NCBI GenBank assembly: GCA_010405405.1
Contig: MU004232.1
Span: 2,673,038-2,737,037 of the forward strand
Length of the DNA: 64,000 bases
From: Microthyrium microscopicum
Lineage: Eukaryota
Direction: 5' to 3'
Part shown: piece by piece, positions 30,067-64,000 of the stretch
Position numbering within the stretch: position 1 is the first letter of the stretch
Layout of the letters: each line of letters starts with the position of its first letter
The notes under the pieces: model-generated
Told to the model about the DNA's origin: nothing
What the model saw: the letters and a program-made list of their open reading frames with translations, nothing else
The model's database searches: none
Made by a program: the position numbers and the translations under genes

Positions 30067-30132
30067 AAGGGGGATTTTAGTAGATCTTGAGGGGGATTTT
30101 AGCTAATTCAAGGGGGGATTTTAGAAACAGCC
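30067..30132. repeat. Right TIR with 3 tandem GGGGGATTTTAG motifs
   Basis: Reverse complement of the left TIR motif array. Confidence 0.9.
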
Positions 30133-31975: not shown

Positions 31976-32142
31976 TGATAACATTTGCTATGTGGGCGTA
32001 TTTTGACGAGACATGACATGGATGGGATTCAAATGCAACTCAGAGGTGTAATTATATTCTAACTAATAGACAGGCTTTTTCAACGCAATGACTTTCAAGA
32101 ATCAACCCCAAAGTGAAAAATGAATAGATACTGGCTTTGAAC

Positions 32143-34959: not shown

Positions 34960-35549
34960 TGTGTTTGGTGATGTGAAGGAAGCTGAAGATGGATGCCTTG
35001 TGATGAATTACGATCACGATATGGAGCAAGGAGGGGTTGTACGACTGATACGAACGCGCCAAGTCTCTCCGTAATTCAAGTGAAAAATGTCCAGTTGGTC
35101 TTTACGAACCTGTAAGGTGAGGTCCAAGGATAGATACCTATAGAAACCGTATAAGACTGGTTGTTATGTGATGAAAAGCAGTGGCATCAGGACCAGCTTT
35201 TTGGCTGAACAAAATTTACTCCAGTAACGCTATGTCTTGGGACTTAAGCCGCTGCTTTAGGAGGTATTTGGGGTATTATTCGGGCGTAGAAGTACCTAAA
35301 GTAGCCCTAGCGTCGACTTAATAAAAGGGACGTTTACCCCTACTTATAGGATTAGGATTTGTAGTATATAGGGTACCCTTCTTAAATATTCTCTTCTAAT
35401 ATTAGTAGTAGTAAGGCTAAGATTATTAGGTAGTACTGCTAAGTAGCTTAATAGCTAGTTCCTTAAAGATATTTAAAGAACTTAGCTACTATATAAATTT
35501 CTACGAATAGATTATTATTAATATTATTAACTCTAGATTTAGTAGCAAA

Positions 35550-37900
35550 ATAGGTTAAACGAAAGTAAAGATAGTATACGCCTTTCTTGCTAAATATTAT
35601 AAGAAATAATGTTAATTATTAGATAAACTTAGGATAGTAAAGAAAAATTATAGCCCTTTAACGAAGAATAATATTAATAAGATATTAATTAGGTAGTATA
35701 GATAAGTAATAATCTTTACTTTTAATTAAAGCTTACTTTTAATTACTTCTTTCTAAATATTATAAAAATATATAGAAGAATACCTTAGAGTATTTAAAAA
35801 TAGCTAGTAGAGATAATATTATAATTTATCTTAAGTAGAATCTTAATAATTATACCTTACGTAAGAAATAGAGTATTTAATAAAAGTTTAAGTATTAGAG
35901 GTAGCTTTATTAAAAATTCACTTAGACATAGTAGTTAGAATTATAGGTATAAGAGGTAAATAACGTAAGTCTAACTTAATATTAAAGTAAAAGATAACTA
36001 GTCTAATAAACTCTAATACATTAATAGTAATTTAATAAATTTATATAACCTAATAATAAGTACTAAGAAAAAGCTAGTTCTAAATATTAATAATTTCTAT
36101 CTTATTAGCTACTATTACTAAGTTTTAGATACTTTAGTATTTCTAGATAAGTAATAACGTTTATAAGTTTACTTCTCTAATATTATTTATATATATACTA
36201 CTACTAGACCTAGTGCTCTAGTATATATAAAGAGGAATACTAAAGTAGTTATAGAGAATATAATTAGTCTTAAAGAAAGTATTAGTATAAACTTTAAAAA
36301 TAAGGATTTAAATAATCGTAAATCTATAAAGAAGCTAGATATACTTAAGTATCTATACTATAAAGATATTTAGCTTATTTTTCTACTAAACCTAGAAAGG
36401 GACTATAATATTCTAGTTATAGAAGTTAAGTTTAGATTTACTAAAGGCTATAAGTAGAGCTATAAGTAGTATATAGCTTCTATATTTCTAGTATTATACT
36501 AATATATAAATTAATAGGAAGATATTTTACCTATACGAGGTTAAAGACTTTATTTTTAATCTAGTTATCTATATAATTGTACTAGCTCTTTTTAATAACG
36601 CCTTTAAGTTAGGATTTTAAACTACTAAAGATATATTTAAACTTTAAGTAAAAAAGCCTTACTATTTTTTAAGTTTATAGTAAAAAAGCAAATAGAGAAA
36701 TAAACTAATTCTTTAGTAAGTAGTATATATTATAGATAATATAAAGACGTTATAATATAAGCCTTTTCATTATTATATATTCCTATATTATCTTTAAAGG
36801 CTTAGAATAATAGTAGGAATAATATAAATTCTAAATCTATATAATATTTAGCATAGTATTAATAAAAGAGTTTAAGATTAGTTTCCTTTTCTTATTATAG
36901 ATATATACTAAGTCTTATAGTTATTAGAACGTAAGGATAATTATAATAAGTTATAAGCTATAAGGATGCTAGCATCTTTTAAGCTTATATTAATAAACGT
37001 ATAATAAGCAATATATAGGCTATATTCCTTAGGCATCTATTTAAGAATGCTATATTTAAGGCAATTACTTATATAAGTTATAATATTAATCTATAAATAT
37101 TAACAAAACTTTTAGATTATAAAGTAGATTTACTTAAGTATTATCTACTTATTATAGAGCTTAAGAAGTAATAAGATACTTTATTAAAGTTAGTACGTAA
37201 TAAGTATTAGATACTTAAAAAGGCAAAAGTTAATAGAGAGCTATTATTTAAACTATATAAATAAGCCTATACTAACCTTAGCTAAATAAAGAAGAGCTTA
37301 CTTAGAGATAAGTAAAAGTAGTCTAAGGTAGAATTCTTTACCTATATTAAGACTAACAATATAAGGTAGTAACTTAACTTATTAGCTTAAAGTCTTTAAG
37401 ACGTAAATATTAACTTATCTATAGAAGTTAAGTATAGCTTAAAGGAACGAAAAAGAGTAGCTAAGCTATTATATAAGTCTCTTAGTATATAAAACCTAAG
37501 AGAAAAGACTAAGTATTAAATTAATACTATTAACGCCTTAGTATTTCTCTATTATAAAAAGGAGATAACTTAATAGTAGACTATACGTAATTACGACTAA
37601 GGCCTTCTTTCTACTCTAGAACCTTTTCTAAGGTCTAGCTCTAAGCTATTTCTTAGCCTAATAATAGTAAGCAACTTTAAGTATCTCTTTTATTTTTATA
37701 AGATAGGCTAAACTCTCTAGTTTTATCGTCTTTAAAAGGCAAGAGAGTATATTAAGCGCTAGTATCTTACTTTTTTTAGAATAGATAAGCTTATATCTTA
37801 CCCTAACGGATTTTATTACTTATTAAGTATTATCCTCTATAGCTATGCTTATTTTAAAAATTACGTTTTAAAGATATATAGATATTATTTTTTATTATAT
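35550..37900 (+). pseudogene. Starship captain: DUF3435 tyrosine recombinase relic with C-terminal Zn-finger-like region
   Basis: De-RIPped motifs: YTATRPGALV (36194-36223), LxYKDIQLIFLPNPERD.DILVMEVKFRFTKG (~36355-36450), PVIHMIALALFDDAF (~36560-36605), MGHKDAGIFQAYINERV..DVQAxFLG (36953-37035) and CLFC...HFKNH...VH (~37680-37880). Confidence 0.88.
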
Positions 37901-40900
37901 ATCTTAGAATAGATAGTTTATATTATCTAATTTTATTTATTAATACTATAATTTTAACTAAAGAGTAATAGTATATATTTAGTAGTTAGTATATATTTTT
38001 TTAATAGAGAAACTTTTATCTATACTAGAAAGTATTATATACTAATTAATAATAAATATAAAACTAAGGCTAGAATATATCTTTGCTTACTTTAAGCTAT
38101 ATCTTTTACTTTTCGTAATAACTATTAATTAAATACTATAACTTAAAATTCTTATATTACTAATAAGTATCTTATAGTAAGATGCCTATTATTATAGGGC
38201 TCTAAGTATATATTCTATTATCCTAAAACCTTAAATTACTAATAGTTTAGCTTTTTAGAAGGTATAACGCGTATTTTAGTAGAATAAGAGAAACTTATTT
38301 TCTATATATATTTATAACTTTTACTTAAATTATTAAATTTCTTTTAAGTACTTTTACGTAAGGAGTTGTCTTTTAGTAAAAATAATCTTAGTAAAGTATA
38401 GTTACTATAAGAGTATCCCTCTACGTTTTAAATCTACGTCTAGTTTATATATATTAGGAAGCTCTTTATATAAGAACTCTATCTAAGTAATCTAGCTATA
38501 GAATAAGAATAGCTTTTTAATTTAATCTTACTTATAGATTACCTATAGAGTAACTACCTATATAATGCTAGCATTAATACTCTTATTTAAACTTTCTTAG
38601 ATTTTTGCTACTATTTAAGTAAACTTAAATAGATTAAGTTAGAGTAGAATACTTATAGTAAAGCTTAAGAATTAATTTAACTTATTTATAATCTCTAGCT
38701 TTATAAATCTAGACCTAAATAAATAGCTAATAGAATTAAGAACGTCTTAACCTTTCTAGAATTTTAGCTTCTAATTCTAAGGCCACTTCTATAACTACTT
38801 AGTTAGACCCTAAAAACAAGACGTATAGATAAGCTATAGAAATTAGATAGATATTATTATTATTAGTATATAGATAGCTTAAGATAAAATATAAAATATT
38901 AAGTAGAAAAGTTTAGAATTATTAGGATATCTTATTTTTAATAGTATATATATTATTTAGGTTATTTCTACTATCTAAAGTCTTACTTACTAATATACTC
39001 TATATATATCTTAATAAGTAAGAGATCTATTTTAAATTACAAATTATATTTAAGACTAATAGTTATAATAAATTTTAGAAGAGTTATCCTTCACTATAAA
39101 GGTAATATTAATATAGAGAAGAAGAAGAAGAGATTTATTATAAAGCTTAATATATATCTATAACTTAAATTAAGGCATATAATAAGATCTATAGCTATTA
39201 TATCTTAATATACGCTATTATTATAAATTTATAAGTAATAGTTATTTATAATTAAGAAGATCTTTTTAGTCTATTTCTTACTTATACTTTATCTTCTAAA
39301 TTAACTTTATCTTTTTATGCTTTTCTCTAGCTTCCACTTCTTTACTACTATAACGTTTAGATAACGTTTTTTAAAGGCGTAAATCTACTTTGCTCTTAGA
39401 GAAGATAGTAAAACTATTCTAAGATTTTTTTATTATAAAATATTATTACTAAAGTTTATTATGCATCTATAACTAGGATTAATTCTAGTAGCTACTTCTA
39501 CTTAGATCTATTAAACTATCTCTTATTCCTTAGATTCTAATAGTTTCTAAGAATTTAGTTGTACTATAGATTATAATTTACTACCTTTTAATTGCCTAAT
39601 TAAGGTAGTTTTTAAAACACTATAAGCCTCTATATATTTATAAATTAACCTATATTTATAATTATAAAAAGTATTTTAAGTATCTTATAGATCTACTTTA
39701 TTTAGTATCTTTAACTAGAGGTAAATTAGATATAAATTACGATTATTATAGTAGTTTAAAGGAGATCTAATTCGTAATCTAGAAGAGGGTAGTTTAAATC
39801 CTTCTCCTATTTTACTTTCTTTTTATACTTCCGCGCTATTTATAGACTTTAGTCTAAATACTTAGCCTTTTTATAATTAGTACTAGCTTTAATTCCTAGT
39901 AATAGAATATATACCTATTATTAAATTCTAAATCTTGTATTAGAAGCTACTAATTAGTTATCTTCTTAAAGAAATTTATATTACTAGACGTTAGTAGGTT
40001 AGAATATCTATTAACAATAAAGGTATTAAATTAAGCCTTTATAGCTACTTTTAGTTTATTTAATTATTTTTAGTTCTTAGCTTTACTTTTATAATAATAG
40101 TATACTAAAAAGAGTATATAATTACTCTCTAAAGTGCATTCTTATAGCATTTATTTATTATATACTAAAAATATTCATTAAGTCTACTACTATGAATTAT
40201 AATAATAAGATATCTAGTATTACTCTTATTATAGAAATTAAGTAGGAGAAGAAGATAACTAACTAATATTAGAATAAGAGGTTTTAATAGAGAAGAAATA
40301 CGCTCTTTAATAAAGATTATACTTTAATAAGTTTAGAAGCAAATATTTATATTCTAGTCTAGTAAAAAAGAAAGCTTTTTTGTACTAATTTATTTAATAA
40401 TCCTAAATAGCTACTATCTTTAGAGAATATTATTAGTCTAAAATAAGGTTAGAGATTCTAAAAGGTAGTTAACCTTTTTTTATATAAGAAAAATATTACT
40501 TATTGCCCGTCTAGTATTAATATAGTAGCTTAAACTCTTACTCTATAGAAGCAAAGTAGATTAAGGATAATAAATAAGTTCTTACTAAGCTAGATAATAC
40601 TTAGCCTTTATTAGATAATTCTTATAAGTAAGGTTTAGTAAAAAGTATAACTAAATCCTAGTCCTAATACTAGTATAATATACTAAGAACGTAGAACGTA
40701 TAAGCTACTTTAATTACCTTACTATACTAAATACTAGGATTTATATAATATTAGGTTCTAGGACAAGGAATAAGCATTATACTCCTAAGATAGTTAATAA
40801 TATATAAAAGCCTAGCGTTTTTAATAAGTAGATATTATAGCTTATATAAAATTAGAATAGAGTATAGTGCTTATTATTAAAAAGGTTTTATAGCTATAAG

Positions 40901-43900
40901 GTCTTTTATAGAGAAGAAGTAGGTATAGTAAGAACGTTAGTTAATACTTTATCCTTACTAATCTATTTCGTAGAATTTTAACCTAGCAGTAATAAGGTAA
41001 ATATATAAAATTAATTTAGCTATATAATACTCTCTAAATAGCTTATTAGAAGTAATATTTTACCTACCTTATACTAATAACTAAAATTAAATCTATTATT
41101 ATAATTTCTTACTTACTATTTTATTATTCTATAATAGCTTTCTATATCCTCCTATATAGAGCTTATTCTCTTACTTATAATATTATACGACTAACTTATA
41201 AGATCTTTATTAGGTAGAATAGTACATTTTAGTTTAAGCTTAATATTCTATTCGCTAAGGTTAGAAATATAATCGCGTTTAGGCTTAACTTATTCTATTA
41301 TTTAGTTATTTATAGAGAGTACGTAAAGTTAGTTACTTATAGAGAATAGACCTATAATTTATACGTTCTTTATAAGACTATTTATTCTAGATAAGTAGCT
41401 TTTAGTTTAAGCTATCTTCCTTTCGTTCTTTTAGTAAGAGATACTATAGTAGGTCTATTTATCATAATAGAATATATAATACTAACTAAATTTAATAGGC
41501 TTAGACGTTTTATATTATTATAAATAATTACTTACCTATTTAGTATTACTTAATCATACTTAGTACTTATTAACTATATAGCATAGTTAGAGTTATTAAT
41601 CTAATTAATAGTTCCTTAATCAACGTATAAAGATAAGCTACTTAAAATATTCTATATTAGCTAGTACTAGGGTAGTAAGTACTATTAAAAACATAAATAT
41701 TAATAATAAGCATTTCTAATTCTATAAAAACTTAGAGTCTTATAACTTTGTTAACTAGTACTAAGATTACTATAAATAGCTTTTAAAGCATAATAAGTAG
41801 TAATTAGAATATAGTCTATTTTATATCTCGTCCAACCTTAATATCTAGAGTAGGGAACAAGTAGGATAAAGTTCCTATAGTAGCCTTTATTAAGGTTATA
41901 ATCGCTATAGCTATAATAATACTCCTCCTAACTAATAGTTTAGTACTTACCTCTTAGAAATACTAAAGCTACCTTAGAACAGTTACTATATAACTATTTA
42001 AGGATAATTTAAATAATTCTTCCTTTTTCCTAATAGATTTTGTACTAGATAATAGTAGTCTTAAGGAAGAGTATTTAAGAATAGGCTACTCCTTACTACT
42101 AAATTTGCCTTATATCTCTTTTATAAGATTAACCACTAATAATTTAGAGATATAAATAAGAGTACCTAGAACTCTACCTATTTTACTAGTATCTAGTATT
42201 ATATCTATTAAGGACGATTAGCCTAATTAGGCTATTAGCAATTAGTTATCTAATATAGTTTCTACTACTAGCTCTACTATATTATAAAGGCTAATAAGTA
42301 GTAAGTAGTTTTAACGCTTATAATAACTATATTTCCTTAAATTTTAGTTCTTCTTAGTTTCTTTATATTATTTAATAATCCTCTACCTATATATTTTAGA
42401 TTATATTTTAAAGGGCTTGTTTAGGCAAGGTATTAGTTAAAATTGTTTTTACTTTATTTAATTTTATTCCTATTATACTTAAATATATTTCTATGCCTAA
42501 TTATATTTCTATACCTAATACTTATCTAACCTATAAAGGTAATAAAATATATTTATTGCTTAAGCTTCTAATAGCGTACTTGCTAGCAAGTTATTTAGTA
42601 ATATTAGTTATTAAAGAGCCTTAAGCGCTAAAAGCTCTACTTACTTTACGTTATAGATATTTAATCTAGATAACTTTTACTCGTAATACTACTATAATTA
42701 TAACGATACAAATAGCAAACTTAGAAGCATATTTAATCCTTTCTTTTACTATTTAAGCTATTTATAATATATAAGGTAAAGATATAATTAAAGTAATATA
42801 AACTTAGACTAAACTTCTAAGGTTATCTATACTTAGTAAGTAGCTAATTAAGGAGTAGCCTTAGCATTAGCAAAATTAATAGAGTATTTATTCTTAGCTA
42901 AAAAGTCTAATATTTTCTCTTAGGGTTACGTTTTTAGCTCTAATAGCCTAAAAAGAACCTCTACCTAAGTTCTATAAACGTATTAGGTTAAATTAGGAAG
43001 CGCTATTAGTAATATATAAAAGATAGCAAACTTGCCTAAAATATTCCTTAATACTATCTCTTTTTAGATAATAGTAATATCTAATTCTAAGTAAAGTTAA
43101 AAACTATTCTTAGAATCTATAGATTTAAGGAAGGTAGAGTAATATAGCTTAAACGAAGAGTTAAAAGAGCTAATTATATAGTTATATAAGTCGGATATCT
43201 TAAATATTAAAGTAGTTACTACTCTATAGACTCTACTAGCTAGCTTTATAGTCTTCCTAGCTAGCTTCCTATTAATATAGAAATCTAGTACCTTATCTAC
43301 TAATATAGTAAAGAAAATTATATAGTACGCTATAAGAAGTTAGTCTCTCTTAGGCTTAGTATCTTTTTTCTTTCTATTAGGAACTATAAGTATTACATTT
43401 CTATAGTTTATATAGTATAAGAATAAAAACTTTATTTAGTTATAAGATTAATTATTTTTATAAGTTAATTAAGCTATAGTACTAAATTCTTATTAATAAA
43501 AAGTAGCCTTAGCGTATTAAATTTAGTAGTTAGGTTTATAATAATACTAGTTAATATTAAGACTATAAAAGAAGGGTACTAGTCCTTACTAGCTCTTACG
43601 TCTAGTATTATTATTGCCTTATACTCTTTTCTCTTTATAGGGATATATTTAGTTTATTAACTTAGTATTATTCCTAAGTACTTAAATAAAAAGAAGAAGA
43701 AGATAGTTAATCTAAAGCAAAATTAAGCTATACGTTCTATTCTTTAAAATTAGATAGGAAGTATAAAAGTAAAAGTATTTTTTATTTTTTATATTAAGGC
43801 TATTTTAGGATATAAGAGCTTAATTAGGTTTTTATATATAAATTTAATACTACTTAAATAAATTTGTTTATACTCTTTATTTAAATAGGATTTATATTAT

Positions 43901-45399
43901 AGCATACCTTCTACTACCTTAATTTACTTTAGATAACTTATAACTACTCTTTTTAGTTAAATACTATTTAAACTTTTAAGGCTAAGTAACATTCTAGCTC
44001 TAAAGTTAGCTATTAGAATATAGATTATTAATAGAAATAGTTACAAATATTTAATTATATAGTAATAGCTATTTTAGAACTCTATTTAGCTAGAAAATAT
44101 AACTAAGCAAAGCTATTAAGTTTTCCTTACTAAAAAAGATATTATTAAACTTTATAAGATTATATACTCTACTAATAAGTAGACGTTACTACTATCGCTA
44201 GAGCTAGTAATTTACCTATAAATAGAAATATACAAGACATATATAAAATAACGTACATTATAATTCTTTTCTATATCGTATAAAGTAATCTTTAGAATAA
44301 TTAATAGCTATAAAGTTATCTATTACTTAGTATACTAGATATAGCTTTATACTCCTAACTTAGTAAATCTACTATTATATTTATATAAGGCTAGTAAGAA
44401 AAATAATTTTATTTCGCTATACTACCTTTAGAATATAAAAGAATCTATTAGAATAAAGTATACTTATTACTTTATTACTAATATAAAGCTAAGCCTAAGC
44501 TATTACTAAGAGGTAAATTTTAATACTTATACTTTCTAAGAGCTATTTACTAACGCCTAAGTTAAGAAAGGGCTTTTTTAATAGCTAGCTATGCTTAAGA
44601 ATTATAACTAAGACTAGTTAATAATAGATAGAGAGCTCATAGTAATTATAGTTTCCCTAAAAGAAAAGTAGAGTACTCTTAAAGTATTAGGTACTACTAA
44701 GAAGGTGCTAGGATATATATTAGTAACCTAGTTATATTACTAAGAATAAGATAGCTCTATTAAGACTTAAGAGTTAAATTAAGCTTTCTATAAGCTAAAA
44801 CAATATTCTATTTAAGTATAAATTCTATAAGATAATATATTAGTATAATGAGTTTAGAAAAGAGACGCTAATTAAAAAACCTATTTATAACTTTAATCTT
44901 TTTTTATAATACTAACTATAATATTTTATAGGTTTATATTTACTTAGCTAAGGAAGGGCTAGACATTAGTTAATATTATTAACTAAATAATACTAAAAGT
45001 ATAACAAAAATCTTATCCTAAAGGTTAAGGTAAGAATTTAAGATTTTATAATAAAACTAAATTGTTTTCTAGAATATAGTAATTTATAGACTTAAAGCAC
45101 AAGGCAGAAAGTATTAAGTAGGCAAAACTAAGACGTAATTTTAAGTAGTATAATAATAATAGTAAGAAGTAATATACTTTACTTAAATACCTTAAAGCTA
45201 TAAAGGAGTAGTTTAAGAAACTTAGAAGAGGCATTAATATAATTATTTAGTTAAAAAGGTTTAGTTAGAAATATAACTATAGGTTAGAAATATTAGTTAT
45301 AGCTTATAGATTATCTATAGTTATTATCTCTATATCTATTTCTAAGCTTATTTATATATATAATATAAACTAAGATTTTAATTCTATTATACTTTATAA

Positions 45400-46450
45400 C
45401 TTTAAGAAATTATACTTAGATAGATTATTTAAACTTATACCTATTATAGTTGCTATAAAGTCGTACGCTTTATAAGACTATTATAATAAGGACAATAGGC
45501 TAATTTTAGATTTATATAATGCGTTTTTATTTATTAACTTTATTAATATATATCTAAAGCGTAATATATAGTACTTTTTTAACTTAAAGACTTTATTTTA
45601 ATTAAGCTACTAGTAGTCTTTAATGTTTATTAAAAATATTAATACTTAAATCGTTATACTATAATATAAACCTACTAATACATATTTTAGCCTTTATATT
45701 TATTAAAATAGAGCTAATATTAAACTCTTTATAATATAGATACTAGGCTATTAAGAACTAGGCACTAGAAATAATCTTTTATTTAAGGTTAGTAATTATA
45801 TTAAATATATTATTCTTATTTTTACCTTACTTATAATACTAGCTAATAACTTTTTATTAAGATATTAGTAATATTAATAAATATATTAAAGAGATATATT
45901 AGCTAACTTAGAGATAACGTATATAGTGTTTTCGTTGCTAAGTAACTTATAGACTACTAATATTAAATTATATTAATAATTAAGAAGATTATAGATTTCA
46001 TAATCTTAATTTGTTCTTATACTTTTTAAGGTTTTTATACTAAAAGCTTATCTAGTAGCTTAATTTAACTTTATAAGATAAGAAGTAGATACTTTAGCAT
46101 GTTCTATATTCGTATTATTACTACTAGGGCTATAGTCTTTATAATTTACTTATAAAGCGAAAGTAGTCTTCTTTAATATAACTTCTATTAAACCTCCTAG
46201 TATAAAAGAGAATTTAGTATTATAGTATTTTTTAATTCTATATTTTAGAGAGAGAATTATATTAGTAGGTATATACTCCTTAGCTATAGGTTTAGTTATA
46301 AAATTAGTAGGGCATTAAGCTCTCTATAGGCTATTATTATGTAGTTTACAAATAAGAGGCTTTAAAACCTTTATAGGTCTAATGTTTGCTTATTTTCTAC
46401 CTATAGTTACTTTTAATATAGTAATACGTAATAGTTTAGCCTATTTATCT
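45400..46450 (-). pseudogene. Protein-kinase-like cargo gene relic
   Basis: De-RIPped H.YNLVSVVHESLGNENTVYVISELADVSLQHICQC.QYLDEKLLASIV, an intron, then IISGAQFL....LHH..F.VSSILMN...EI.I (~45680-45990). Gene ends are approximate. Confidence 0.55.
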
Positions 46451-47679: not shown

Positions 47680-50050
47680 ATGTCTTAACTATTTTAGTAT
47701 TGCTTAGGTATCTTTAGAGTCTCTATAATTTTTAAGTAATAATTTATAGTCTCTTAACTAAAAGAATTTAGAAAGGCTTAAAGATATTTATCGCATAGAA
47801 GGCTATCTATATAATTATTCCTAGTATTATATACCTACTATAATAGATTAATCTACATTAAAGTAGTTATTTTAATTAAATGAATATATAGAAAGCTATC
47901 TACTTAAAAAGGAAAAGAATAAGCTTATTAGATTAAACTTTTCTTTAGATCTTAAGCTATACTATTTATAAGAAAAATATAAAGTATAAGCTACTAAGGA
48001 ATCTAGTAAAGTTATAAGAAAGTTGCTCTAGTAAATAATAATTCTATACTCTAATAGTAAGTATCTTTATATAATAAATACTTTTTAAAGCTTACTAAGA
48101 TACTAGAAATTAGTACTAAGATTAAAAGATCTTTAAGTAAAGATTTTAAGAATAGTACGTAGTTCTTAGACAAAATAATTTACTAAAATATTATAATATA
48201 TTAATATCTTAAGTCTTACGCAGAGTATTACTAGTAGTTGTGCCTAATATAGTATAAAGCTAATATACTATTCTAATTACTTAAATAATAATATCTAGCT
48301 TTTAATTTAGCTCTATAAAACTTATTTTAAATACCTACTTTATTATATAATTTCTAGCTAATATTCTAGCTAAAAGTATTTGTTATACGATGTAATAAAG
48401 TAATAATAAAATTATTTACCTTAGGTAGTAATACTTACTTTCGCGTAGGAGTTTCTTTACTATATAAAGTATATTTTTAATACTTAGTTATATATTCTTA
48501 GTAGCAATAAGAATCTTATAAGAGATATAAACGTAGAGATAATACGTAAGCTATAACTATAATATTTAAAAATATATAAAGGAGACTAGAGCTTCATTTA
48601 TAATGCTTTATAAAATAACTAAATCTTCCCCTCTATTATAAACTCTTTAGTTAGAGATTAGATTTTTTATTAAGTATATAAGCTCTAGTATATTATACTT
48701 AGCCTTTTTATTCTATAATAGGACCTAAAGTATATAAAGCTATATATAGCTATAGTACTTAAACTTTTATAGCTATATAAAAGAAAGTATTATAGTTATT
48801 ATACTCTATAATAAATAGCAAACTTAGTATTCTATAGTTTAGATTTAAATATAAATAAAATACTAATCTAAATATTAGAATTATTTTCTATAGACTAGAA
48901 AATATATAATAGAAACTCTTAACATTAAGTTAAGATTACCTTTTAGTAGCTTTTCCTATATATAATAAGATATATATTTAGTTTAACTAAAGAAAGTCTC
49001 TTAAAAGAAAAAGGCTAGCTATACTCTATCTTAAAAGCTTTAAATAATATTATATAGTCTTATTTTACTCTACTAGCCTCTAAACTTAGTTTTAACTTAC
49101 TTAAAATTAGAAGAAGAAAGCAAAGAGACTTATTTATTATAAAGGTATACATATTATTATTAAATCTACTAGTAAACTATTTCTATAGCTAATAATTTTC
49201 TTATTTAATTTAGGAAGTTGCAAAGCTATATAGAAACTTAACTAAGGATCTAACGCTAAGAGGTAACCTAGAGTTTATAGTAAATAGTCTAGGTATAGTT
49301 ATAAGTAGACAATATAGAAAATAAGGTAAAAAGATATATAATTATAATAGGTTATATATATTTCTAAACGTTTTGCGCTAGCTAGTAGACTTATAAGGAA
49401 GTTCTATATTATCATTATTTATTTACTAATTAGTTTTTTATACTTTCTTTAGCAATATTAATAAGCTAAGTATTAAGGTAATTAGTAAGGACTATTCCCT
49501 CTTATTATAAGATAAAGATATTAATATAAGCTTAATAGAAGCTAGCTTAGATAATAGTAAAGTCTAAAGCTTATAAGGGAATAATAGCTTAGAGGATAGC
49601 TATAATAATAACTATAATAATTTTGCCTTCTTAGAAGTACCTAAATCTATATATTAATTCGTAAAGTAGCTAGTATTATCTAAGTAACTTAGCTTAAATA
49701 CTAGTAAAAAGTTAGAAACTCATCTTACAATATAATATAAGTTTAAAGATCTAGACTTAAATATTTAATAAATTTATATTATAGTAGTAAGTAAAGAAGT
49801 AATTAAGAATAAAATTAAATATATTAATTATACTAAATTTAAGGATAAGCTAAGATATTTTAGCTATATTATAGTAGTAGTTAGTACCTCTTATACTATT
49901 ATGCATAAGGAGGTATTTAATAGAGCTTTTAATAATAAAGATTACTATATATATATAACGAAGTAGCTTTAAATTCATTACTATAAAGGAACTAGTCTAA
50001 AAAGATTATTCTTTATAATAGAGAACTCTTTAGTTATTTTTAAGCAATAT
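47680..50050 (+). pseudogene. DUF3723 Starship accessory gene relic
   Basis: De-RIPped motifs: KNLERLKDIYRIEGCL...HYVPAII (47762-47845), CLQGKHRVQAA...WWTVVLY (~47960-48050), IPSLFTL..DLKYIE.C (~48690-48745), QLFLY.MRH (~48945) and FH.FFG (~49440). Confidence 0.8.
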
Positions 50051-50754: not shown

Positions 50755-50968
50755 TACTATTTCTAGTTCTAAAGATGCATCTTTAGCTATACCTAAATAG
50801 GTAAAGAAGGTTAGTATATTTTACTAATAATAGATTATAGGACCCTTTTAGATAATTATATAATTATAAATATAATAGAGAACCTAGCAAACTAGTAAGT
50901 AAGTAAGCTATAAGATATACTCTAAAATAGGTTTAGCTAAAGGTACATTTTTAGAACTAGAAATAGTA
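50755..50968. mobile_element. MITE (~214 bp) with ~40-bp TIRs and TA flanks, nested in the Starship
   Basis: TACTATTTCTAGTTCTAAAGATGCATCTTTAGCTATACCTA closely matches the reverse complement of TAGGTTTAGCTAAAGGTACATTTTTAGAACTAGAAATAGTA. TA is present at 50753-50754 and 50969-50970. Confidence 0.7.
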
Positions 50969-53900: not shown

Positions 53901-56900
53901 ATAGCTATGCCCTTAAGTTTTATATATATAAGCTTCCTATTAGTTTAATAGAATTTATTACTTAATATATTACTTAAGTTCCTAATAGTCTCTTAAGTAA
54001 TATAATAGATTATAGTACTAAATAAGAAATTAAGGAGTTTTATAGATATATAACTAACAAAATTAGATTATTATAGCTTAAAGATACTTTTATATAGACT
54101 ATACTACTATTTTTATTAAAGAAGTTACTTATAAAAGGAAAAGTATAAATTTTAGCTCTTATTATACTAAACCTCTTTAATTTTTAAGATATACTATAGA
54201 AAGACTTTATTATACTTAGAGTTTTCTTATAGTATAATATACTATATCCTTTCTTAGACTTACTCCTTTTAATAGAAGATAATTTTAATAATACTTAGTA
54301 GCTTATATATAAGAGTATATAGAGAATTAACGTAGATTTTAGTAGGCATTAAATAGCTAGAATACCTAGCTAATAGCTAACATAAACTAAATATAGCTTA
54401 TTAGTAAACTTATTCTACTAGTCTTAGGCCTAATAATTCTAGACTATAAGAATTAAAGAAGGGAAAATCTTTATAATATTCTTAATAATCTAGTAGTCTT
54501 CTCTTAACTTATATAAATTATAAGAATAATTCTTAAGTTCTTTCTATTTAATTAATACTTATTATAGAGCTAAACAAAATATTATAAAAAGAAGATATTA
54601 TAATTAATATCTTTTAGGTTACTACCCTAGATTATTATAAAATTTATTAGGTATATTTTATATAGTACTATATTAAACACTTTTATAGCTACGTCTTAAT
54701 AAGCTATTAGACCTTCCCTTCTAATTATAAGATCCTCTTTATATATTTTACATAATCTTATAAAGAGACTAGTAAGGACTATACTTTATTAACCTTTTAT
54801 TTATAATATATTAATTTTTATTTTATAGTATTTCTTATTAATATATACGCTATTAATCCTAGTTTAATTTTAATAGTTTTAGGCTCTTCTCTACTTGCTT
54901 TATAAAAAGTTACATAGTTCTAATAAAGCTTAACTACTACGGCGTAACTTATAATAATAATAGTACTTTTTCTATATATTTGTCCTATTAATAGGGTCTA
55001 TAATTTCTTATATTAATAATTTTCTTCTTCTATAGACTTTAAGCCTTATAAATCTATACTCCTTTATTATAATCTAATATATTACTATTCTTAGCTTAGA
55101 ACACTTAGGTATTCTTACTAAAACCTTATAAGCTCCTTTCTTTTTTTATATAATACCTTGCTTAATAAATTAAAGGTATATTTCTTACGCTTTATTTATA
55201 GTTTTATTAAGAGAAAAAGTAGCACTATTTAAGATATATTCTACTATAAATTTAGACTTAGATTAGTATCTTTACATCTAATTATATTTCTATATAGCAT
55301 TATATTTTGCTTTAATATAGGTTTACTTAATAGCTTCTTATTAAAATAGTCTTAGTACTAGCTTAACTTTGTTATGCTTTTTAGTAATAGGTACTAGTAT
55401 AAAGAGTAAAGAAAATAAGCCTTAGAGATAACTAGCGCGTAGAATTATTATTTTAGAAAGATAGTAATTAAAGATTTAGAGATAGAGTCATTAAGATTAT
55501 TCTACTAGTATAGTTTAAATACTTTATAACTTTAATATACTAAGCTACTTATCTTATTAAAAGATTAAAAAGAATATCTAGTCTACTTTTTATGCTTACT
55601 AATTAACTAGCGCTAACTAGTACCTTTATTATAATATGTAAGCTATTAAATTTATAAGCTAAGAAATTTGCTTTACTATAGCTTAGGCTTTTCTCTAAGA
55701 AATAAGCTTATTTACTATTATTAGAAGAAGACTTAATAAGTCGCTAAATAAAGGCTAATAATTATTAGGAATAAACCTACTAAATAGCCTATTAGTTTTA
55801 GGCAAAATTAAGTACTCTAAATAAATTCTATCTTACTTAGAAGAGTCTATTTAGTATACTAGCCTAGATTATTCTAATTTTTAGAATATAGTATTAATAT
55901 ATCCTACCTAAGAACTCCTCTTTAGCGCTTAATTAAAGATTAGCTATAATATAGTAGTTACTTAGAAAATAATATACTTTAGCTAGAGAATACTTAATAA
56001 TCTAGTAAATATACTTATTACTTTATCTATAATCCTACGTAGCTATTTATGCTATAATCTATAACTCTATTATAGCCTCTCTTCATTCTAAGTATAATAT
56101 AATAGCTAGGCTAAGAATAACTAAAAATTACTAGAGGAAATATATCTTTCTAGACGTAATAGATAAATCTAAGGTATTTTAATAGTCTATATAAATTACT
56201 TAGAATAATAGGCTTAGTAAAAGTAGTATCCTATTATAGCTAATAAAATTATACTATATAATATATAATGTATTAATAAGCTTAAAGTAATAAAAATAAA
56301 TTTAACTAATAATCTATAGACTCTAACGTTATAATATATATAGAAGGTTAATTACTACTTTAGAATTGCCCTATTTTCTAAAATATATAGCTTTTTTTAT
56401 TAAAATAAGAGCTTAGAAAGGAGTAGTTACACGCGTTTTAATAAAAAGCGCTTATAATTATTTATATACTTCTAAGAAGTAACCTTTAAACTATAAGACT
56501 TTATACTAAAGTAGGGCTACTTTTATAGCGCTAATATTTTATAAAAGTATATTAGTCTATCTATTTAGTTTATTATTCTTAAGTAAAGTTAATATAGATT
56601 ATAGATTCTCTTAATCTATTTCTATATAGGCCTTATATATAAGTAAATTATAAGGGTAAGGGATTTAGCTAATAGCGAAGAGGCTCTTAATATTTTATAA
56701 AGAAGGTAGTAGGCTCTAGCTAGTAAATAGAAAAAGATAAAATAAAGTAAGGTAATAAAGATATAAGTCTTTAGTATAGCGCTTATTATTTAGAGCTATA
56801 CTAATAATCTCTACTTCTTAAAGGACTTATTTCTTTTATTTAATATTACTAAAATATAATATTAAGAGATATACTTTAAATACTTTAGACTAGATAGCTC

Positions 56901-59085
56901 TTAAGAGAAGTCTATAGTTATTATTTAAATGATAAATTTAGGTTTTAAAAGCTAATATAAACTAAGAAAGGTATAGAGATATAGACGAAAATCTATTAAG
57001 TAATTAATATATAATTAATAAGTAGCAAGTTAAAGCTTACTTAAGAAAGAAATAGAGTATAAGCTATATTTTAGCTATTAGAATAAAGACCTCTAGTAAT
57101 CTAATCTTATTCTCTACTTTAGTTTTAATAATACTATTTTTAAAGGTAATTAAATTAGCTTACTTAAGATTTTATAAAAGTAATTTAATTAGCTTAATTT
57201 TAAGTTCTCTACGTATAATATTCTATTACGAATAGCTATAGTAAATAGAATTAGAGAATAAGGCTAGTATAGAAGGAAAGAGGCTATAGAACTAGAAAAG
57301 GATGCTTTTTAAGATATCTCTTTTATATTTTTTATTATAGCTAAAAGTTTTATATATAGTTTCTAAATTATAATTTATAAGCAAGATGTAGCCTTCGTCT
57401 AAACGAACTTTAACTAACTTAAGGAATAAATCCTACTTATAGAGAAGATTAAGAATAGTTAAGTCCTATCTATTCTAAGTTTTAGAATTATAGTATTTAT
57501 ATAAAAAGCTTTAAAGTATCTAAAATACATATATAGTTACTAATAGCTAAGCTATAACGTAAAGTTAATAAATAGATATACTATCTATTATAACTTTAGT
57601 TAGCGTAATCTAATAGGTAAACAAGGTCCTTATATAGTAGTAACCTAGTAGTTACGCAACTAAGGTTCTAGCCTAAAATAGATAGCTAATAGAGGATCTT
57701 ATTTAATTGCTTAGCTCTTAGGATTAAGTAAGGTAGTTTTTAGTTATCTAATAACTAGCCCTACTTAGCTAGAAGATTATATAGCTCTTTTACTAAGTAA
57801 TTAAAGGCAACTTCTATTATAGTATAATATAATAGAAATAATAAGAGAAAAAAGCGTTTTAGACTCTTATTAAATTTTTATTAAGTTAGTTTCTTAAGGT
57901 CTAAAATTTTCTCTCTAATATTAGTAGATATTATTAGTATAAGAGTCTAATTTATTATTTCTTTTATACTTTATAAAAATAAGAAACTAATTAACTCTAT
58001 CCTAGAATCCTAATTATTAGCTTTAAGAATAGCTTTAACTATTTTTTATACTTAATTAAGCTAATTCTACTTCTTATCCTATAGGGTCTAATTATAGTTT
58101 CTTAATAATTAGGTTATAAGCTCTTAGGCAGGTTAGGGAATAAGAATATAGATAAAATTATTAAGATCTATTTAAGTAGATAATACTATAGTTATTTTAG
58201 GCTATTTTATTTTGTTTATAAAGACGTAATATATTGCTTTTTATTTTTATATACGCCTTAGTATAGAGTATTTAATCCCTTACTTATTCTTAAAAGGTAT
58301 AGCTTAATAGACTATAGCGCAAAGCTTAACTATTATTATTATATACCCTAATTTTAGGAGCTATTTATATAACGTAAGTAGTAGCTATAGTCTAGGCCAT
58401 AAGTAGAGTATCTAGGTAGCTTAAGCTTATAAACACTTGCCCTAGGTAGGCTTAACAAGTTAGTACTATATATTATACTACTATAAGCTAAAGTTAGTCT
58501 ATAATATTAATAGTATAAAATTTCTTAGCTATAAATATTCTAATAAAGTGCGCCCTCCTAAAAAGTTAGAATAGAAAATTCTTAAGTTAAATTATAAGAA
58601 AGTAGCGCGTTAAGAAAGTTACTACCTACGCTTAGCTTAATATAATAATAATATTATAAAGCATACTTTACATAAATTCCTTATAAGTTAAAAGATATTT
58701 AGTAGTACTATATTTATTATTATAGAGTTTAGAATAGTTAGAGGCTATAGAAGTTTCTTAATTAATAAACTATTAGTCTACGTTAGTAGATATAAGACTT
58801 AAATAAAGACCCTCTACCCTTTTATAGTAGTATTAGCAGTTTTTATATAAAGAAGTAGTAGGTAGTTATTTATATTAAGCTAGTTAGTAGTCTTTAAAAT
58901 AAGAAAGATACAAACGCTTACTACTACCTTAGGTATAGCTATATTTATTAGATATATTCTTACTTAGCTTATTAGTAACTAGAGTTTTTAGCGTCTATAT
59001 TCTTTAAAGGATCTAAATATATTTATCTTGCTTTAGATAAGCTAAATATAAGTTGCTTAGGCTAGCTATAATATAGTTGCTAGGT

Positions 59086-59130
59086 TAGTAATATTATTAT
59101 TAATAATATTATTATTAGTAATATTATTAT
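59086..59130. repeat. 15-bp tandem repeat x3 (TARTAATATTATTAT)
   Basis: Directly visible. The period is a multiple of 3, compatible with a former coding repeat. Confidence 0.6.
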
Positions 59131-62100
59131 TAATCTATTAGTTATAAATAGTAGATTAATACAGTTTAGAATATACTATAATAGCAAAAGTAGCTTTAGT
59201 AACGAAGATATTAGTTATATATGCTATACTTAAATTAAGAAAGAGGAGCGAAATAAAGTAATTTACTTACTTTACTAAGATATTCCATAATAGTAGTAGG
59301 AAGACAATAGAGAAGGGTAGATATATAATATTATTAATTATTATACGTTAATTTAGTTCTTAGCCTAAGTATATAGAATATAAAAGGCAAAAGATATAAA
59401 GTTATTAGCTTTAACTACTAAGTTATATAATTACTTTATATATTATAGTCTTACTATAAAGCTACTAGTACTAAAATTTGCGTATAGCTAGGAGTTAGGT
59501 AGTACTATTATATATAGTTAAGTATTCCTAAGCTAAGCTATTTTACGTTCACTTTTATTCTTATTTCTAGCTCTATAGCCTTACTTAAACTAGAGAGTTC
59601 TATATTTTAATACATATTTCATTCTATAGCCTTATATACTAATTGCTAACTTTCCTTATTTTCTACTCTTTATAGTAAAACTATACTTAGCTTTTTATAT
59701 TCTTTACTTAGCTCTTTTACTACTTTTTATAAAACTAGGCCCTTAAAGTTTCTATATTTAACTTCTAGGGCATAAGTATAAACTCTATCTATTTTACTTA
59801 CTTATAGTATTAGGAAAACGCTTCTTTAGCTTATAATTATTACTTCTATTTTACGTATTACTTTAAGCTTAGTAGTACTAGCAATAATAATATACTAAAG
59901 ATAAATACTTATATAATAGTATATAAGCTTCTTATAATAAAGTACTAATCTTTTTAAAGAATATATAATAGGATACTACTAAGTCTAAATTAATAGTTAA
60001 TAGCTAAGCCTAAAGCGAAAAAGATTAGATTAAGTTAAAGTATATAAAAAAAAGCAATATACTTTATAATACTAATTTAACCCTAATAGTTACTAGATCG
60101 TACGATTAGCTAAAGCAATATAAAGGATTTAAAGAGCTATAGGAGATTTAAAAAGTATAATATTATTACTTAGTATTAGCTAAAGAGAATAAGCTTTATT
60201 TAATTCTACTTTTATAGATTACCTAAGACTCGTTATTTAAGAAGTATTCTAAGATTTATTTAAACTATACTTTAGAGCAATAGTGTAATCTATATAGAAA
60301 GTCCTTAGATACTTTAGACTATTTTAAGAGAGCTAAATTACTTTAGATATTTATTTCTCTAATTATAAATAAGCTAGATCTCTTGCCTAATACATTAAGA
60401 TAATATATAGTTATTATCTATACTAAGAGATATAGTTAGTATAGAAATTAGCTTAATATTTACTACTAATAGGAGCTATACTATAATAAATTTAAGTATT
60501 TTAGTAGAGTTTTTAAGTTTATAAAGTAAAGGTTTTACGTTCTTATTTAATAGGTTAAAGTTAAGCTTAGTAAAAGTTCTTTAGTTAGTATAAATATTAT
60601 ATAATTTAATTATAATAGAATAGAGATATAAGTACTTATATATAATAAGCAATAGTTTCTATCTAGCTTTGCCTATTCTTATATTAAGAGTTTAGACCTT
60701 TTTAAGAATATCTTTCTATAACCTCTAGTAGTATAGAAATACCTACTAAAAAAATACCTAAGCTACTTACTTCTTTATCCTAATTTACTCTATACTTTAT
60801 ATAGTATCTCATTATAGCTTATAAATCTATAATTAATATATAAAATATATAACTATAGGGTTTAGAAATTTATAAAATTATAAAAATTAGTAACTCATCT
60901 AGAAAGGTAAAGCAAATTACTACTTATATTATAAAAGCGCTATACATACTAGTTTTAGGCTTTAGCTACCTAAGTAGAGTTTAAAGATTAAATATAAATA
61001 CTATCTTACTAATTATTAAAATATCTATCCTAGACTTAATATTCTCTTTATATTTACTTTAGATAAAGTAAAAATAGCGTTAGAATACTACTAGTAAGAG
61101 TACCTTATAAAGACTTATTATATTTTATATATTATTTTTAAGTAGCATAATTCAAACTATCTTTACTCTTACTATAACTAGAAGGCTTATATATTAAGCA
61201 TACTACTATTTCTTCTTTAATAAGATATTATGCGTTACTATTTACTATAGTATAAAAGAACTAACATTACTATCTTTTAAATAATACTATTAGATATTAT
61301 TTTAATAGCTAAAAATATTTATTTACGCTTCTACTCTATTATCTACATTATAATTATAGTTAAATACGTATAGAGTATATATAAGAGAATTATTAGCCTA
61401 TATTAGTTTAAGGTATAGTTTAAGCCTTAAAACCTTAAAATTACTATTTTATATACTAACTTTATAGACAAAGATAGTGCTAGCAAGCTATATTATATTA
61501 ATTTATACTTAGTATAAATTTAGTATTACCTAGATAGCTTCCTCTATTTCTTAAGTATTAATCTTAGTAGTAAATAATTAAAGAGATATTAAATTACTAG
61601 ACGTTCCTAGTTTAGAATTAAGGAGAGTATAATACTATATAGTTAAAAGTAGTTATACTTCATTAAAGGTACAAAACTTATATTACCTTATTTATAATTA
61701 CCTAATTGTTTTCATTATAATTATACTTTCTTCTCTACTAGTAGTTATAGATATTACTTTACTAATTATAAGCGTATTATAGCTTATGTATAGTCATTAT
61801 ATTTACTAATTATATATATAGGCGCTTCTTAACGTAAATAATCTCTTATTCTTAATTATATAACTAATTTAGCCTAAATATAAGGAAAATTAGCTTAGAA
61901 ACTTTCAACTATAGCTAGCCTATTATAGCTATCTACTTTGCTAGTTTTGTTTTATAGTTCTAAGTCTTATTGCTACTAAGAACCTTAAGTAATTAAACGT
62001 TATATTAAGAGTACTACTTAATATATTAATAGGTTTTTTATATACTAAAGTATAAGCTATTTAAGTTTAAACTATAAGTTAATAATTTCTATCTCTATTA

Positions 62101-64000
62101 TCTATAAACTAATAAACTAGTTTATTACTTTATAATTTTTAGAAAAGTTTTATAGTTTATATTATAAAAGTAATTAAAATTAATCTATAGTTTAAATTAA
62201 ACGTAATAATCTAGAACTATTTTAACTAATTTATCTTTATTAAGTACTTCTAGTACTAGAGATATTTATTATTAGTATTATATATACTTTATATATTGCC
62301 TTAATATCTAGGATAAGTTAAATTAGGTTCTTTCTAGCTACCCTTAGGTTTTTTAAGGCTTTATTAATCTTACTAGTAATTTAGTTAAAAAGACATAGAA
62401 TATAGTAATACTAGGCGGTAAGCTTTACTATAAAGTTAGCTATTATACTTATTCCTTTTATCTTATTAACTCTTCTTAGAATGTTCTATAAAGAGAATTT
62501 TATATTAATAGATTTCTTATACTTTAGAACTATAATAAGTCTTAAATTAATTTATTTAAACTTATAGTTATTAACGATTTAGATTAAGTATATACTTAAT
62601 ATTCTTATTATAACTCTTTAGTATATTATAATATTTTAAATATAGTTTTTCTTCCTAGATAAAGACCTTTGCTTACTAAGAATAAATATATATTTTATAA
62701 TTTGTATTTAATTCTAAGTTTAAGAAATATTTAATAATAAATAGAAAGTAGTTCTATAACTAATATTGCTTTAATATAGAGACTTCGTATAGAAGTATTA
62801 GATTCGTAATAACTCTTCTTCTATAAATATTCTAAATAGTAGCTATCTTATAATAACTAAGCTACTAATAATTTAGTAAGAGAAGGTATTAGAGCTTAAG
62901 ATAGCTATATATCTTAAATAACTACTATTACTATAATATTATAGAATCCTATTTAGGATATACTTATAAAATAATACTAACTAATATAGTAGGCATTAGC
63001 TATAGTATTAGCTATACTTATATTAAAATTTAAACCTACTCTTGCTCTATATATTAGTATTAAGCATTAATACTTAAATTTATTTTCCTTTAGTACCTTA
63101 TAGTTAGTAGGAGTTAGTATCCTAATAAATTCGCTAATAAAGTACTTTATAATAATTTTAAGATCTCTATCATCTTTAATATAAACTAATAATTTTAGGT
63201 AATACTAAGTCTTAGTTTAGAACTATAAAGTTCTTTTAGTACTACGTATTTAGTAAATTACAAGCTTTAAATACTAGGAGAGTACTAAATAGATCTTATT
63301 AATATAACCATACTTATTACTAGTTATAAGATCTATATTATACTTAGTAATATATAAGTAGGCGTAAACTTTTATTTAATTTTAAAGATATTTAGTACTT
63401 TTTTATTACTAATTTTATAGCTTTACTTTTAGAGCATTATAATTTAGTAATAAATAACTCTCTTATTAAACTTTAGATATAATATAATAAGGTAATAATT
63501 AGAATATAGATAAGATAATAAAATAATTTCTTTTATTTTTTTAGTTATATATCATAAAGTTCTTATATTACTAGTCTAATTATATACTCTTATTATTATC
63601 TTTAGAATATAGATTAACCTTTTTTTCTTCTTTTCTTTTCTAGGAATACTACTTAAGTATCTTCTAACGTTAATATTAATCGCTTAAGGTTCATCTTAGC
63701 TTAACTTCTTATTATCCTTTACTTAGTAGTATTAGGCAGCTTTATAAAATTAATCTAAGAGTTAAGCAATTTATTTAATAGTTACGTTAGTAGTTTAATA
63801 GCTTTAGGTAAAATACTTTTATATAACTTAACTACTTTATTAATATAAAGCTATTTAATACTACTTTTGCAACCTTTATAGCTAGTAGCCTTAAAGATAG
63901 TAGTTAAACTAACTTTCACGTTTACTAATTAGTATAGAATTTCATAGTTCTTATTTAGAAAAAACTTAGGTATTACCTTATATAAATTATAAATATAGGT

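Follow-up and report, generated by a model that had tools for sequence, protein, structure and literature searches.

A RIP-mutated block in Microthyrium microscopicum as a probable derelict Starship-type giant transposon

Starships and their RIP-degraded remnants

In the Pezizomycotina, Starship-type giant transposons are recognized by a DUF3435 tyrosine recombinase, called the captain, which is the first gene of the element and is transcribed inward. The distance from the upstream boundary to the captain start is given as at most 7 kb and usually at most 2 kb (PMC11162782). According to the definitions given in PMC9156397, a Starship in the strict sense requires flanking direct repeats, i.e., target-site duplications, and a defined insertion, while a "Starship-like region" is one where DUF3435 is co-located with DUF3723, ferric reductase (FRE), patatin-like (PLP) or NLR genes, without target-site duplications.

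Starships that have been inactivated or extensively mutated by RIP are already in print (PMC10104507, PMC11162782, PMC11905480), i.e., the phenomenon as such is not new. The experimental case is Hephaestus, which was RIPped in crosses of Paecilomyces variotii when present in two copies (Urquhart et al. 2023, PMC10104507). The M. microscopicum block described below resembles Hephaestus, a DUF3435-captained giant element that acquires C-to-T and G-to-A changes along its length once two copies share a nucleus, such that function is lost while the DNA is left in place (PMC10104507). Hephaestus differs in that the description refers to one experimental cross, with light mutation, known boundaries and a TTAC(N7)A target (PMC10104507), whereas decay of the M. 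microscopicum block is extreme (GC 22%, 49 stops in the captain), which implies several cycles of RIP. A naturally occurring counterpart is found in type A strains of Gaeumannomyces tritici, where a single Starship has few genes and has undergone extensive RIP (Hill et al. 2025, PMC11905480). The likeness to our block, in being natural, gene-poor and heavily RIPped, is one of description; the G. tritici element was delimited by starfish and has a callable captain gene (PMC11905480), while the M. microscopicum block retains no surviving ORF and annotation-based pipelines would therefore not call its captain.

For RIP-mutated, inactive copies the recommended terms are "derelict" and "degraded" (Gluck-Thaler & Vogan 2024, PMC11162782). 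Like a Derelict, the block is an immobile remnant with Starship-associated genes (Gluck-Thaler et al. 2022, PMC9156397; PMC11162782), but the Derelicts as originally described had no DUF3435 homologue and intact cargo (PMC9156397), whereas here a captain relic is recognizable and all cargo is destroyed. The Starship Wallaby offers a further parallel, as its captain contains many premature stops and was missed by automatic captain annotation; in contrast to our block, Wallaby has boundaries and cargo that have been identified and are for the most part intact (PMC11162782).

Composition and left edge of the block

The DNA considered here is a stretch of 64,000 nucleotides (referred to as the window), which is divided near its middle by a change in composition:

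35,240..64,000, no strand: AT-rich block mutated by RIP and regarded as the body of a degraded element, continuing to the end of the window
34,960..35,239, no strand: transition zone of intermediate RIP index, from the start codon of a GFA-domain gene to the onset of full RIP

Counted from 35,201 to 64,000, the GC content is 0.221, TpA/ApT is 1.65, (CpA+TpG)/(ApC+GpT) is 0.15 and the composite RIP index is +1.50, while in the GC-normal flanks (1-25,000 and 30,201-35,200) the corresponding values are 0.47-0.48, 0.71-0.76, 1.26-1.27 and -0.50 to -0.55. Set against the flanks, the block displays the combination that marks RIP-affected DNA, i.e., TpA/ApT is high, the substrate ratio low and the composite index positive. 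The composition is uniform, with a GC content of 0.20-0.24 in every 2-kb window, and none of the 41 ORFs of at least 100 aa in the window is found beyond 34,959. The initial annotation, which described about 29 kb depleted of CA/TG and essentially without ORFs, is thus borne out.

Low GC by itself is not specific, and AT-rich DNA of this kind could also be produced by some other mutational process or represent an ancient AT-rich satellite, a centromere-like region or low-GC foreign DNA. The loss is, however, specific to the CpA and TpG dinucleotides (observed/expected 0.18 and 0.11, respectively) and accompanied by an excess of TpA (1.43), while ApC and GpT remain near expectation. Self-BLASTN of the block revealed no tandem or satellite structure. 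Together with the pattern of protein decay discussed below, these data leave an origin other than RIP with a negligible probability.

The switch in composition is sharp. When the sequence is read directly, normal CA/TG content stops near 35,240, i.e., only slightly inside the boundary previously placed at 35,220. The 500-nt window from 35,001 is intermediate (GC content 0.39, TpA/ApT 1.71, substrate index 0.60), and the transition zone represents either flanking DNA with leakage of RIP or the outermost 5' portion of the element. The flanking GFA-domain gene is found on the minus strand with its start codon at 34,959, and the named relatives of this host gene are from Dothideomycetes and Xylariales (59-65% identity). 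The block is located directly upstream of the GFA-domain gene, and the promoter region of the latter may have been affected.

No 5S rDNA or tRNA target was found at the boundary in an Rfam search of 34-36 kb. Inverted repeats that could pair with the left edge as TIRs or hairpins were considered, but among the 131 inverted pairs the 25 longest were all at most 68 nt, i.e., at the chance level for AT-rich DNA, and were rejected as boundaries; within the window no inverted repeat beyond such chance-level matches links the left edge to the interior of the block. A separate RIPped TIR element is located only 5 kb from the block.

Relics of a captain and associated genes

Three gene relics, all on the plus strand, were identified in the block using searches that tolerate stop codons:

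35,583..37,885, plus strand: DUF3435 tyrosine-recombinase (captain) relic (Pfam PF11917, phmmer and tblastn)
38,264..38,608, plus strand: BTB/POZ-domain gene relic immediately following the captain (115 codons, 12 of them stops)
48,061..49,453, plus strand: DUF3723 gene relic (PF12520, an auxiliary family of Starships), in two collinear pieces in different frames

The captain relic was detected by six-frame Pfam with stops read as X (PF11917, E 4.4e-9, on the plus strand only). A phmmer search against 1.84 billion representatives gave 66 matches at E<=1e-3 (19 of them at E<=1e-10, the best at 1.2e-42), and when Pfam was applied to 15 of the 66, 12 were DUF3435 (up to 371 bits) and three were BTB. 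The homologues come from Pezizomycotina. With tblastn of the 66 homologues back onto the window, 68 of 70 HSPs fall at 35,583-37,885 on the plus strand; the other two fall on the BTB relic. The tblastn alignments define five pieces of the captain (35,583-35,666, 35,743-35,919, 36,017-36,454, 36,513-36,848 and 36,950-37,885), between which the frame changes across intron-sized gaps of 58-101 nt. The limits of these pieces are the ends of homology, exact splice sites not being fixable after RIP, and the branch-point-like motifs that are present (CTAAC, ACTAAT and ACTAAG) are only suggestive of introns. Thus, both an inward-facing DUF3435 gene at 35.5-37.9 kb and the intron-containing nature of the genes, as originally proposed, are recovered. 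The gene itself is dead, with 49 TAA or TAG stops in 657 codons.

Comparison with the homologues also indicates how the gene was destroyed. All 63 relic stops that are covered in the homologue alignment are TAA or TAG, and of the 512 homologue residues found opposite relic stops, Q accounts for 31% (4.4% in the background), W for 7.8% (1.0%) and R for 20.5% (6.8%). The identity of the captain to its best homologue (P0001) increases from 35% to 66% if T and A are allowed to represent former C and G, compared to 41-43% with two equally permissive transversion schemes and 17% with shuffled pairs; the transition-specific gain was repeated in all nine homologues tested. As judged at the protein level only, the nonsense and missense changes of the captain appear to be overwhelmingly C-to-T and G-to-A, which is the pattern of RIP. 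Both the placement of stops opposite Q, W and R and the restriction of the identity gain to transitions argue against the non-RIP processes considered above.

The start of captain homology lies about 340 bp inward from the RIP boundary, and the captain is the first gene from this edge. If the RIP edge is taken as the boundary, which we infer to be the 5' boundary of the element, the position agrees with the published rule of 7 kb, usually 2 kb (PMC11162782), and counts in favor of a Starship.

The BTB relic is defined by the three phmmer matches to query residues 886-997, all of which are PF00651 BTB proteins, and by tblastn HSPs from two of these three homologues (E 3.9e-8 and 8.8e-6); Pfam run directly on the relic (six frames, stops as X) did not report BTB. 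The DUF3723 relic is encoded on the same strand as the captain and follows the captain start at a distance of about 12.5 kb. Its main piece at 48,440-49,453 covers profile positions 177-508 of 508 with 30 stops (E 4.4e-24, 85.5 bits; E 1e-19 in the first six-frame Pfam scan), while the upstream piece at 48,061-48,411 covers positions 77-183 with 13 stops at a weak E of 0.03. A word-index search with the X-read relic, a method unsuited to RIPped sequence, gave no homologues at E<=1e-3, and the limits of the relic are therefore those from Pfam alone. The earlier placement of a DUF3723 gene 12 kb downstream of the captain agrees with these data.

The RIP-mutated block, the inward captain relic near its edge and the same-strand DUF3723 relic together uphold the core of the initial interpretation, and we consider it probable (roughly 75%) that the block, which extends from about 35,240 past the end of the window, is a degraded, i.e., "derelict", Pezizomycotina Starship-type giant transposon that was inactivated by RIP. 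Co-location of DUF3435 with at least one auxiliary family is provided by DUF3723. By the published wording the block is a "Starship-like", degraded region, because a strict Starship needs direct repeats whereas the window ends, at 64,000, before the block does (PMC9156397).

The two marker genes might instead be former resident or domesticated genes of a gene-poor region, which was RIPped following a segmental duplication or through leakage from repeats nearby. A delimited element is lacking for many of the predicted Starship-type recombinases (PMC11162782), and no boundary repeats are seen in the window. On the other hand, DUF3435 together with DUF3723 is the published definition of a Starship-like region (PMC9156397), and the captain is placed exactly at the edge, facing inward. 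Taking all of this into account, residence without mobility appears very unlikely. Leakage of RIP is, furthermore, not expected to yield intense, sharp-edged RIP over tens of kilobases, and here the intense RIP extends over at least 28.8 kb.

The few-kilobase elements called Cryptons also encode a tyrosine recombinase, which is found outside the DUF3435 clade, while the relic matches DUF3435. In the published phylogeny the DUF3435 captains are separate from Cryptons (PMC9156397).

Extent and history of the proposed element

The three relics account for about 4 kb of the 28.8 kb, and the remaining approximately 24 kb have no assigned family. This observation raises the question of whether the Starship relic, i.e., the captain, BTB and perhaps the region to DUF3723, fills only part of a composite AT-rich isochore, where the remainder is made up of unrelated RIPped repeats that either were nested into the element or belonged to a pre-existing AT-rich target. 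Several Starship families favor AT-rich or TE targets and often contain nested TEs, and some prefer AT-rich or RIPped DNA (PMC11162782), such that part of the block could be older RIPped repeats; the presence of the RIPped TIR element nearby points in the same direction. However, Pfam in six frames over 35,001-63,702 gave no reverse transcriptase (RT), integrase, RNase H or protease families and no transposase domains at E<=0.1, self-BLASTN of the 28.8 kb revealed no LTR-like or other repeat pair except for one 49-bp direct pair, and no credible TIR pair was seen. The absence of retrotransposon motifs that had been reported thus holds in these searches, and neither an LTR retrotransposon nor nested retroelements were recognized. 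Pfam is insensitive on RIPped DNA, as seen from the missed BTB and from the neighboring TIR element, which scored only a 17-bit MULE match, and the absent retroelement domains are therefore weak evidence. GC and the RIP indices are, on the other hand, uniform all through the block, the two marker genes share one strand at a distance of 12.5 kb, an arrangement seen in known elements, and the stop periodicity described below hints at coding relics out to 61.8 kb. Considering these data together, a composite isochore is possible, albeit unlikely. In the same Pfam search of 35,001-63,702, FRE, PLP and NLR gave no matches at E<=0.1; these families are not required for a Starship-like region.

That the whole 29 kb is one element, which moved in this lineage, is what the derelict-Starship interpretation would entail. 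In such a scenario, an intact captain recombinase would have mobilized the complete element, cargo included, by excision and integration, as demonstrated for Hephaestus. One nucleus would then at some time before meiosis have contained either two copies or extensive repeated portions, and several sexual cycles of RIP may have taken the element from roughly 47% to 22% GC, thereby eliminating every reading frame and immobilizing the element where it stood. The abrupt RIP edge upstream of the captain homology would be the edge of the duplicated unit and hence the 5' end of the element. The suggestion of two copies, and hence of mobility in the lineage, is a reasonable one and accords with the crosses described by Urquhart et al. 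2023 (PMC10104507). Alternatively, RIP could have been triggered by internal repeats, similarity to host DNA or pre-existing RIPped DNA downstream. A more specific proposal, i.e., that the block is a single Starship of an undescribed lineage, preserved as a whole RIP fossil in a fungus without a close named relative, is doubtful; the lack of a close named relative is based on the flanking gene, whose identity to named proteins does not exceed 65%.

If correct, the derelict-Starship interpretation means that stop-tolerant profile searches still allow recognition of a giant transposon with cargo after RIP has erased every ORF, and that the RIP edge is usable as a proxy for the 5' end of an element. 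For this genome, the block would be a record of a past Starship invasion and of sexual cycles with active RIP. For the field, it adds one more example of Starship mobility versus genome defense, already shown experimentally; such an example helps annotation and the surveying of degraded elements, although it will not surprise the specialist. Should ORF-less fossils be widespread, a considerable proportion of the AT-rich "isochores" in RIP-competent fungi, which are usually attributed to retrotransposons, would be dead Starships invisible to gene-based tools such as starfish, and stop-tolerant six-frame searches would uncover a hidden history of giant-element invasions and sex.

Stop codons in the block display a 3-base periodicity in several segments, which may be relics of cargo genes:

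41,101-41,550, 41,701-42,150, 45,001-45,600 and 46,051-46,650, strand ambiguous: candidate coding relics (cargo)
49,201-50,250, 58,351-59,250 and 61,351-61,800, strand ambiguous: further segments with stop periodicity

The statistic is insensitive and does not map genes, because the DUF3723 relic itself is unflagged. Nevertheless, the chi-square for stop-codon periodicity exceeded 9.21 in 16 of 189 windows (8%), compared to 1.7% in first-order Markov simulations, which suggests further coding relics as far as 61.8 kb.

Composition and edge of the AT-rich block

The window is GC-normal at 1-25,400 and 30,150-35,200 (GC 0.47-0.48), while the remainder consists of two AT-rich blocks. The larger one, referred to here as the block, reaches the window end at 64,000 and spans 28.8 kb or more. 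Its GC content is 0.221 (0.20-0.24 across all 2-kb windows), its TpA/ApT ratio 1.65, its (CpA+TpG)/(ApC+GpT) ratio 0.15 and its composite index of repeat-induced point mutation (RIP) +1.50, compared to -0.50 to -0.55 in the flanks. The observed/expected ratios are 0.18 for CpA, 0.11 for TpG and 1.43 for TpA, with ApC and GpT near 1. The drop in GC from ~47% to 22% implies several rounds of RIP, where the number of rounds is deduced from this drop. The edge is sharp, i.e., normal CA/TG content stops near 35,240 when the sequence is read directly, which is within 20 bp of the start at 35,220 proposed in the initial annotation. There are 41 open reading frames (ORFs) of at least 100 aa in the window, none of which lies beyond 34,959.

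Gene relics and their decay

Six-frame translations of 35,001-49,402 and 49,301-63,702, with stops read as X, were scanned against Pfam. In the former segment matches were found in one + strand frame only, to DUF3435 (PF11917, E 4.4e-9), the tyrosine recombinase or "captain" of Starship giant transposons, and to DUF3723 (PF12520, E 1e-19); in the latter, no family was found at E<=0.1 in any of the six frames. The relics, i.e., stop-riddled gene remnants, are listed below together with the flanking intact ORF.

Features at the edge of and within the block
33,805-34,959, - strand, intact GFA-domain ORF (PF04828; CENP-V/GFA, "Mss4-like"; Pfam)
35,583-35,666; 35,743-35,919; 36,017-36,454; 36,513-36,848; 36,950-37,885, + strand, captain relic, five pieces in alternating frames (tblastn)
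38,264-38,608, + strand, BTB/POZ relic (tblastn)
48,061-48,411, + strand, DUF3723 relic, collinear piece in a different frame (profile 77-183, E 0.03)
48,440-49,453, + strand, DUF3723 relic, main piece (targeted Pfam scan, profile 177-508 of 508, E 4.4e-24)

With the X-read frame of 35,603-38,602 as query, phmmer retrieved 66 matches at E<=1e-3 from 1.84 billion representatives, 19 of these at E<=1e-10 (best 1.2e-42). Among 15 of the 66 that were scanned with Pfam, 12 carry DUF3435 and 3 carry BTB/POZ, the latter covering query residues 886-997. When all 66 proteins were aligned to the window using tblastn, each of the 70 HSPs fell on the + strand, 68 in 35,583-37,885, two in 38,264-38,608 and none elsewhere in the window. 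The BTB relic itself yields no Pfam match when scanned directly with stops as X. The captain homologues are found in Hypocreales, lichen-forming fungi and Dothideomycetes. Because the best N-terminal alignment begins at homologue residue 27, the captain start codon would be located near 35,505. The captain pieces are 58-101 nt apart. Once unaligned residues are taken into account, these gaps match introns ~50 nt long, and branch-point-like motifs (CTAAC, ACTAAT or ACTAAG) occur in three of the four; after RIP, the splice sites are no longer identifiable. These data bear out the initial annotation, which had proposed intron-containing genes, an inward-facing DUF3435 gene at 35.5-37.9 kb and a DUF3723 gene ~12 kb downstream. 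Stop-codon periodicity (chi-square >9.21 in 16/189 windows of the block vs 1.7% in Markov simulations), with flagged segments extending out to 61.8 kb, hints at additional coding relics, for a statistic that misses the DUF3723 relic and names no gene.

The captain relic contains 49 stops in 657 codons, exclusively TAA or TAG; the DUF3723 pieces contain 13 and 30, and the BTB relic 12. Among the homologue residues opposite relic stops (n=512, all alignments pooled), Q accounts for 31%, W for 7.8% and R for 20.5%, vs 4.4%, 1.0% and 6.8%, respectively, of all aligned residues. Such an excess arises when CAA/CAG, TGG and CGA/CGG codons undergo C-to-T and G-to-A changes. We also counted, without sequence reconstruction, homologue residues reachable from the window codon if any T was a C and any A was a G. 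Allowing these transitions raised the best homologue identity from 35% to 66%, compared to 41% and 43% with two equally permissive transversion sets and 17% with shuffled pairings, and the same transition-specific gain was seen in 9/9 homologues tested. We conclude that the relics are genuine protein-coding genes wrecked by RIP-type transition mutations.

Probable identity and mobility of the element

A Starship has been defined as a region bounded by target-site duplications (TSDs) with a DUF3435 gene at its 5' end, while "Starship-like" denotes DUF3435 co-located with DUF3723, FRE, PLP or NLR genes, without TSDs (PMC9156397). In known elements the upstream boundary lies at most 7 kb, usually at most 2 kb, from the captain start (PMC11162782); here, captain homology starts ~340 bp inside the RIP edge. 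Because RIP acts on duplicated DNA, the sharp edge is most simply that of a duplicated unit, and it coincides with the expected position of a Starship 5' end. We consider that the block is a single degraded Starship-type element, with a probability of roughly three in four. Alternatively, it could be composite, where the distal part would represent older RIP-mutated repeats beyond the degraded element. Some Starship families favor AT-rich or TE DNA as insertion target (PMC11162782), but we consider a composite origin unlikely. Six-frame Pfam scans (35,001-63,702) gave no reverse transcriptase, RNase H or integrase families. This lack of domains is weak evidence against nested retroelements, because Pfam missed the BTB relic and gave only 17 bits for a MULE transposase in the second AT-rich block. 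Also arguing against nested retroelements, the only repeat pair detected within the block by self-BLASTN is 49 bp long, an inverted-repeat scan gave short AT-rich matches alone, and Rfam identified neither 5S nor tRNA genes at the block boundary.

The only non-trivial repeats of the block are an inverted repeat at 50,747-50,976 (two arms of 49 nt with 88% complementarity, separated by 132 nt), which may be the remains of a small MITE-like element or hairpin, and a nearby 49-bp direct repeat (50,216-50,264 and 50,355-50,403, 86%).

The initial annotation had also proposed mobility of the element, on the grounds that two copies had shared a nucleus. This scenario matches crosses in which Hephaestus, present in two copies, underwent RIP, with zinc tolerance lost in 29/30 and cadmium tolerance in 30/30 progeny; RIP can also arise through internal repeats or through resemblance to host sequences (PMC10104507). 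The probable Starship-type element was likely mobile in the Microthyrium microscopicum lineage. RIP of Starships has already been shown by experiment (PMC10104507), and Gaeumannomyces tritici type A harbors a gene-poor Starship with extensive RIP (PMC11905480). The starfish paper recommends "derelict" or "degraded" for inactive RIP-mutated copies and describes one captain with many stops that escaped its annotation (PMC11162782). The present relic is thus one more example of a published phenomenon, useful for annotation.

Flanking genes and the second RIP-mutated block

The GFA-domain ORF is located on a 2.9-Mb contig, and the best named relatives of its protein are 59-65% identical, mostly from Dothideomycetes and some from Xylariales. 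The host belongs to the Pezizomycotina, and the database contains no close relative of it with a name. The start codon of the GFA-domain gene is located ~280 bp from the RIP edge, and because RIP indices are intermediate in those 280 bp, the promoter may be affected by RIP leakage or heterochromatin spread.

The second RIP-mutated block (25,572-30,132; GC 0.28, composite RIP index +1.25), for which no similarity to the 35-64 kb block was found, has terminal inverted repeats (TIRs) of 65 bp at its ends (25,572-25,636 and 30,068-30,132, 89% identity). It contains a sub-threshold MULE transposase match near 28,940-29,176 on the minus strand (E 0.0077, 17 bits) and is most likely a RIP-mutated Mutator-like DNA transposon of 4.56 kb. 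In the least AT-rich part of this TIR element, Rfam places a tRNA match at 27,797-27,889 on the minus strand (43.8 bits, full model, 93 nt and thus with an insertion), while ARAGORN predicts no tRNA anywhere in the window; the match may represent a tRNA gene, either decayed or interrupted by an intron, or else a captured fragment.

In the GC-normal part, the minus-strand ORFs 783-3,275 (830 aa) and 16,454-18,304 (616 aa) match no Pfam family at E<=1e-3. Other flank ORFs give weak or partial MatE, MFS and glycosyltransferase-34 matches, consistent with intron-split fungal genes. GC-normal DNA also contains a 53-bp inverted repeat pair (4,809-4,861 and 5,044-5,096, 85% identity).
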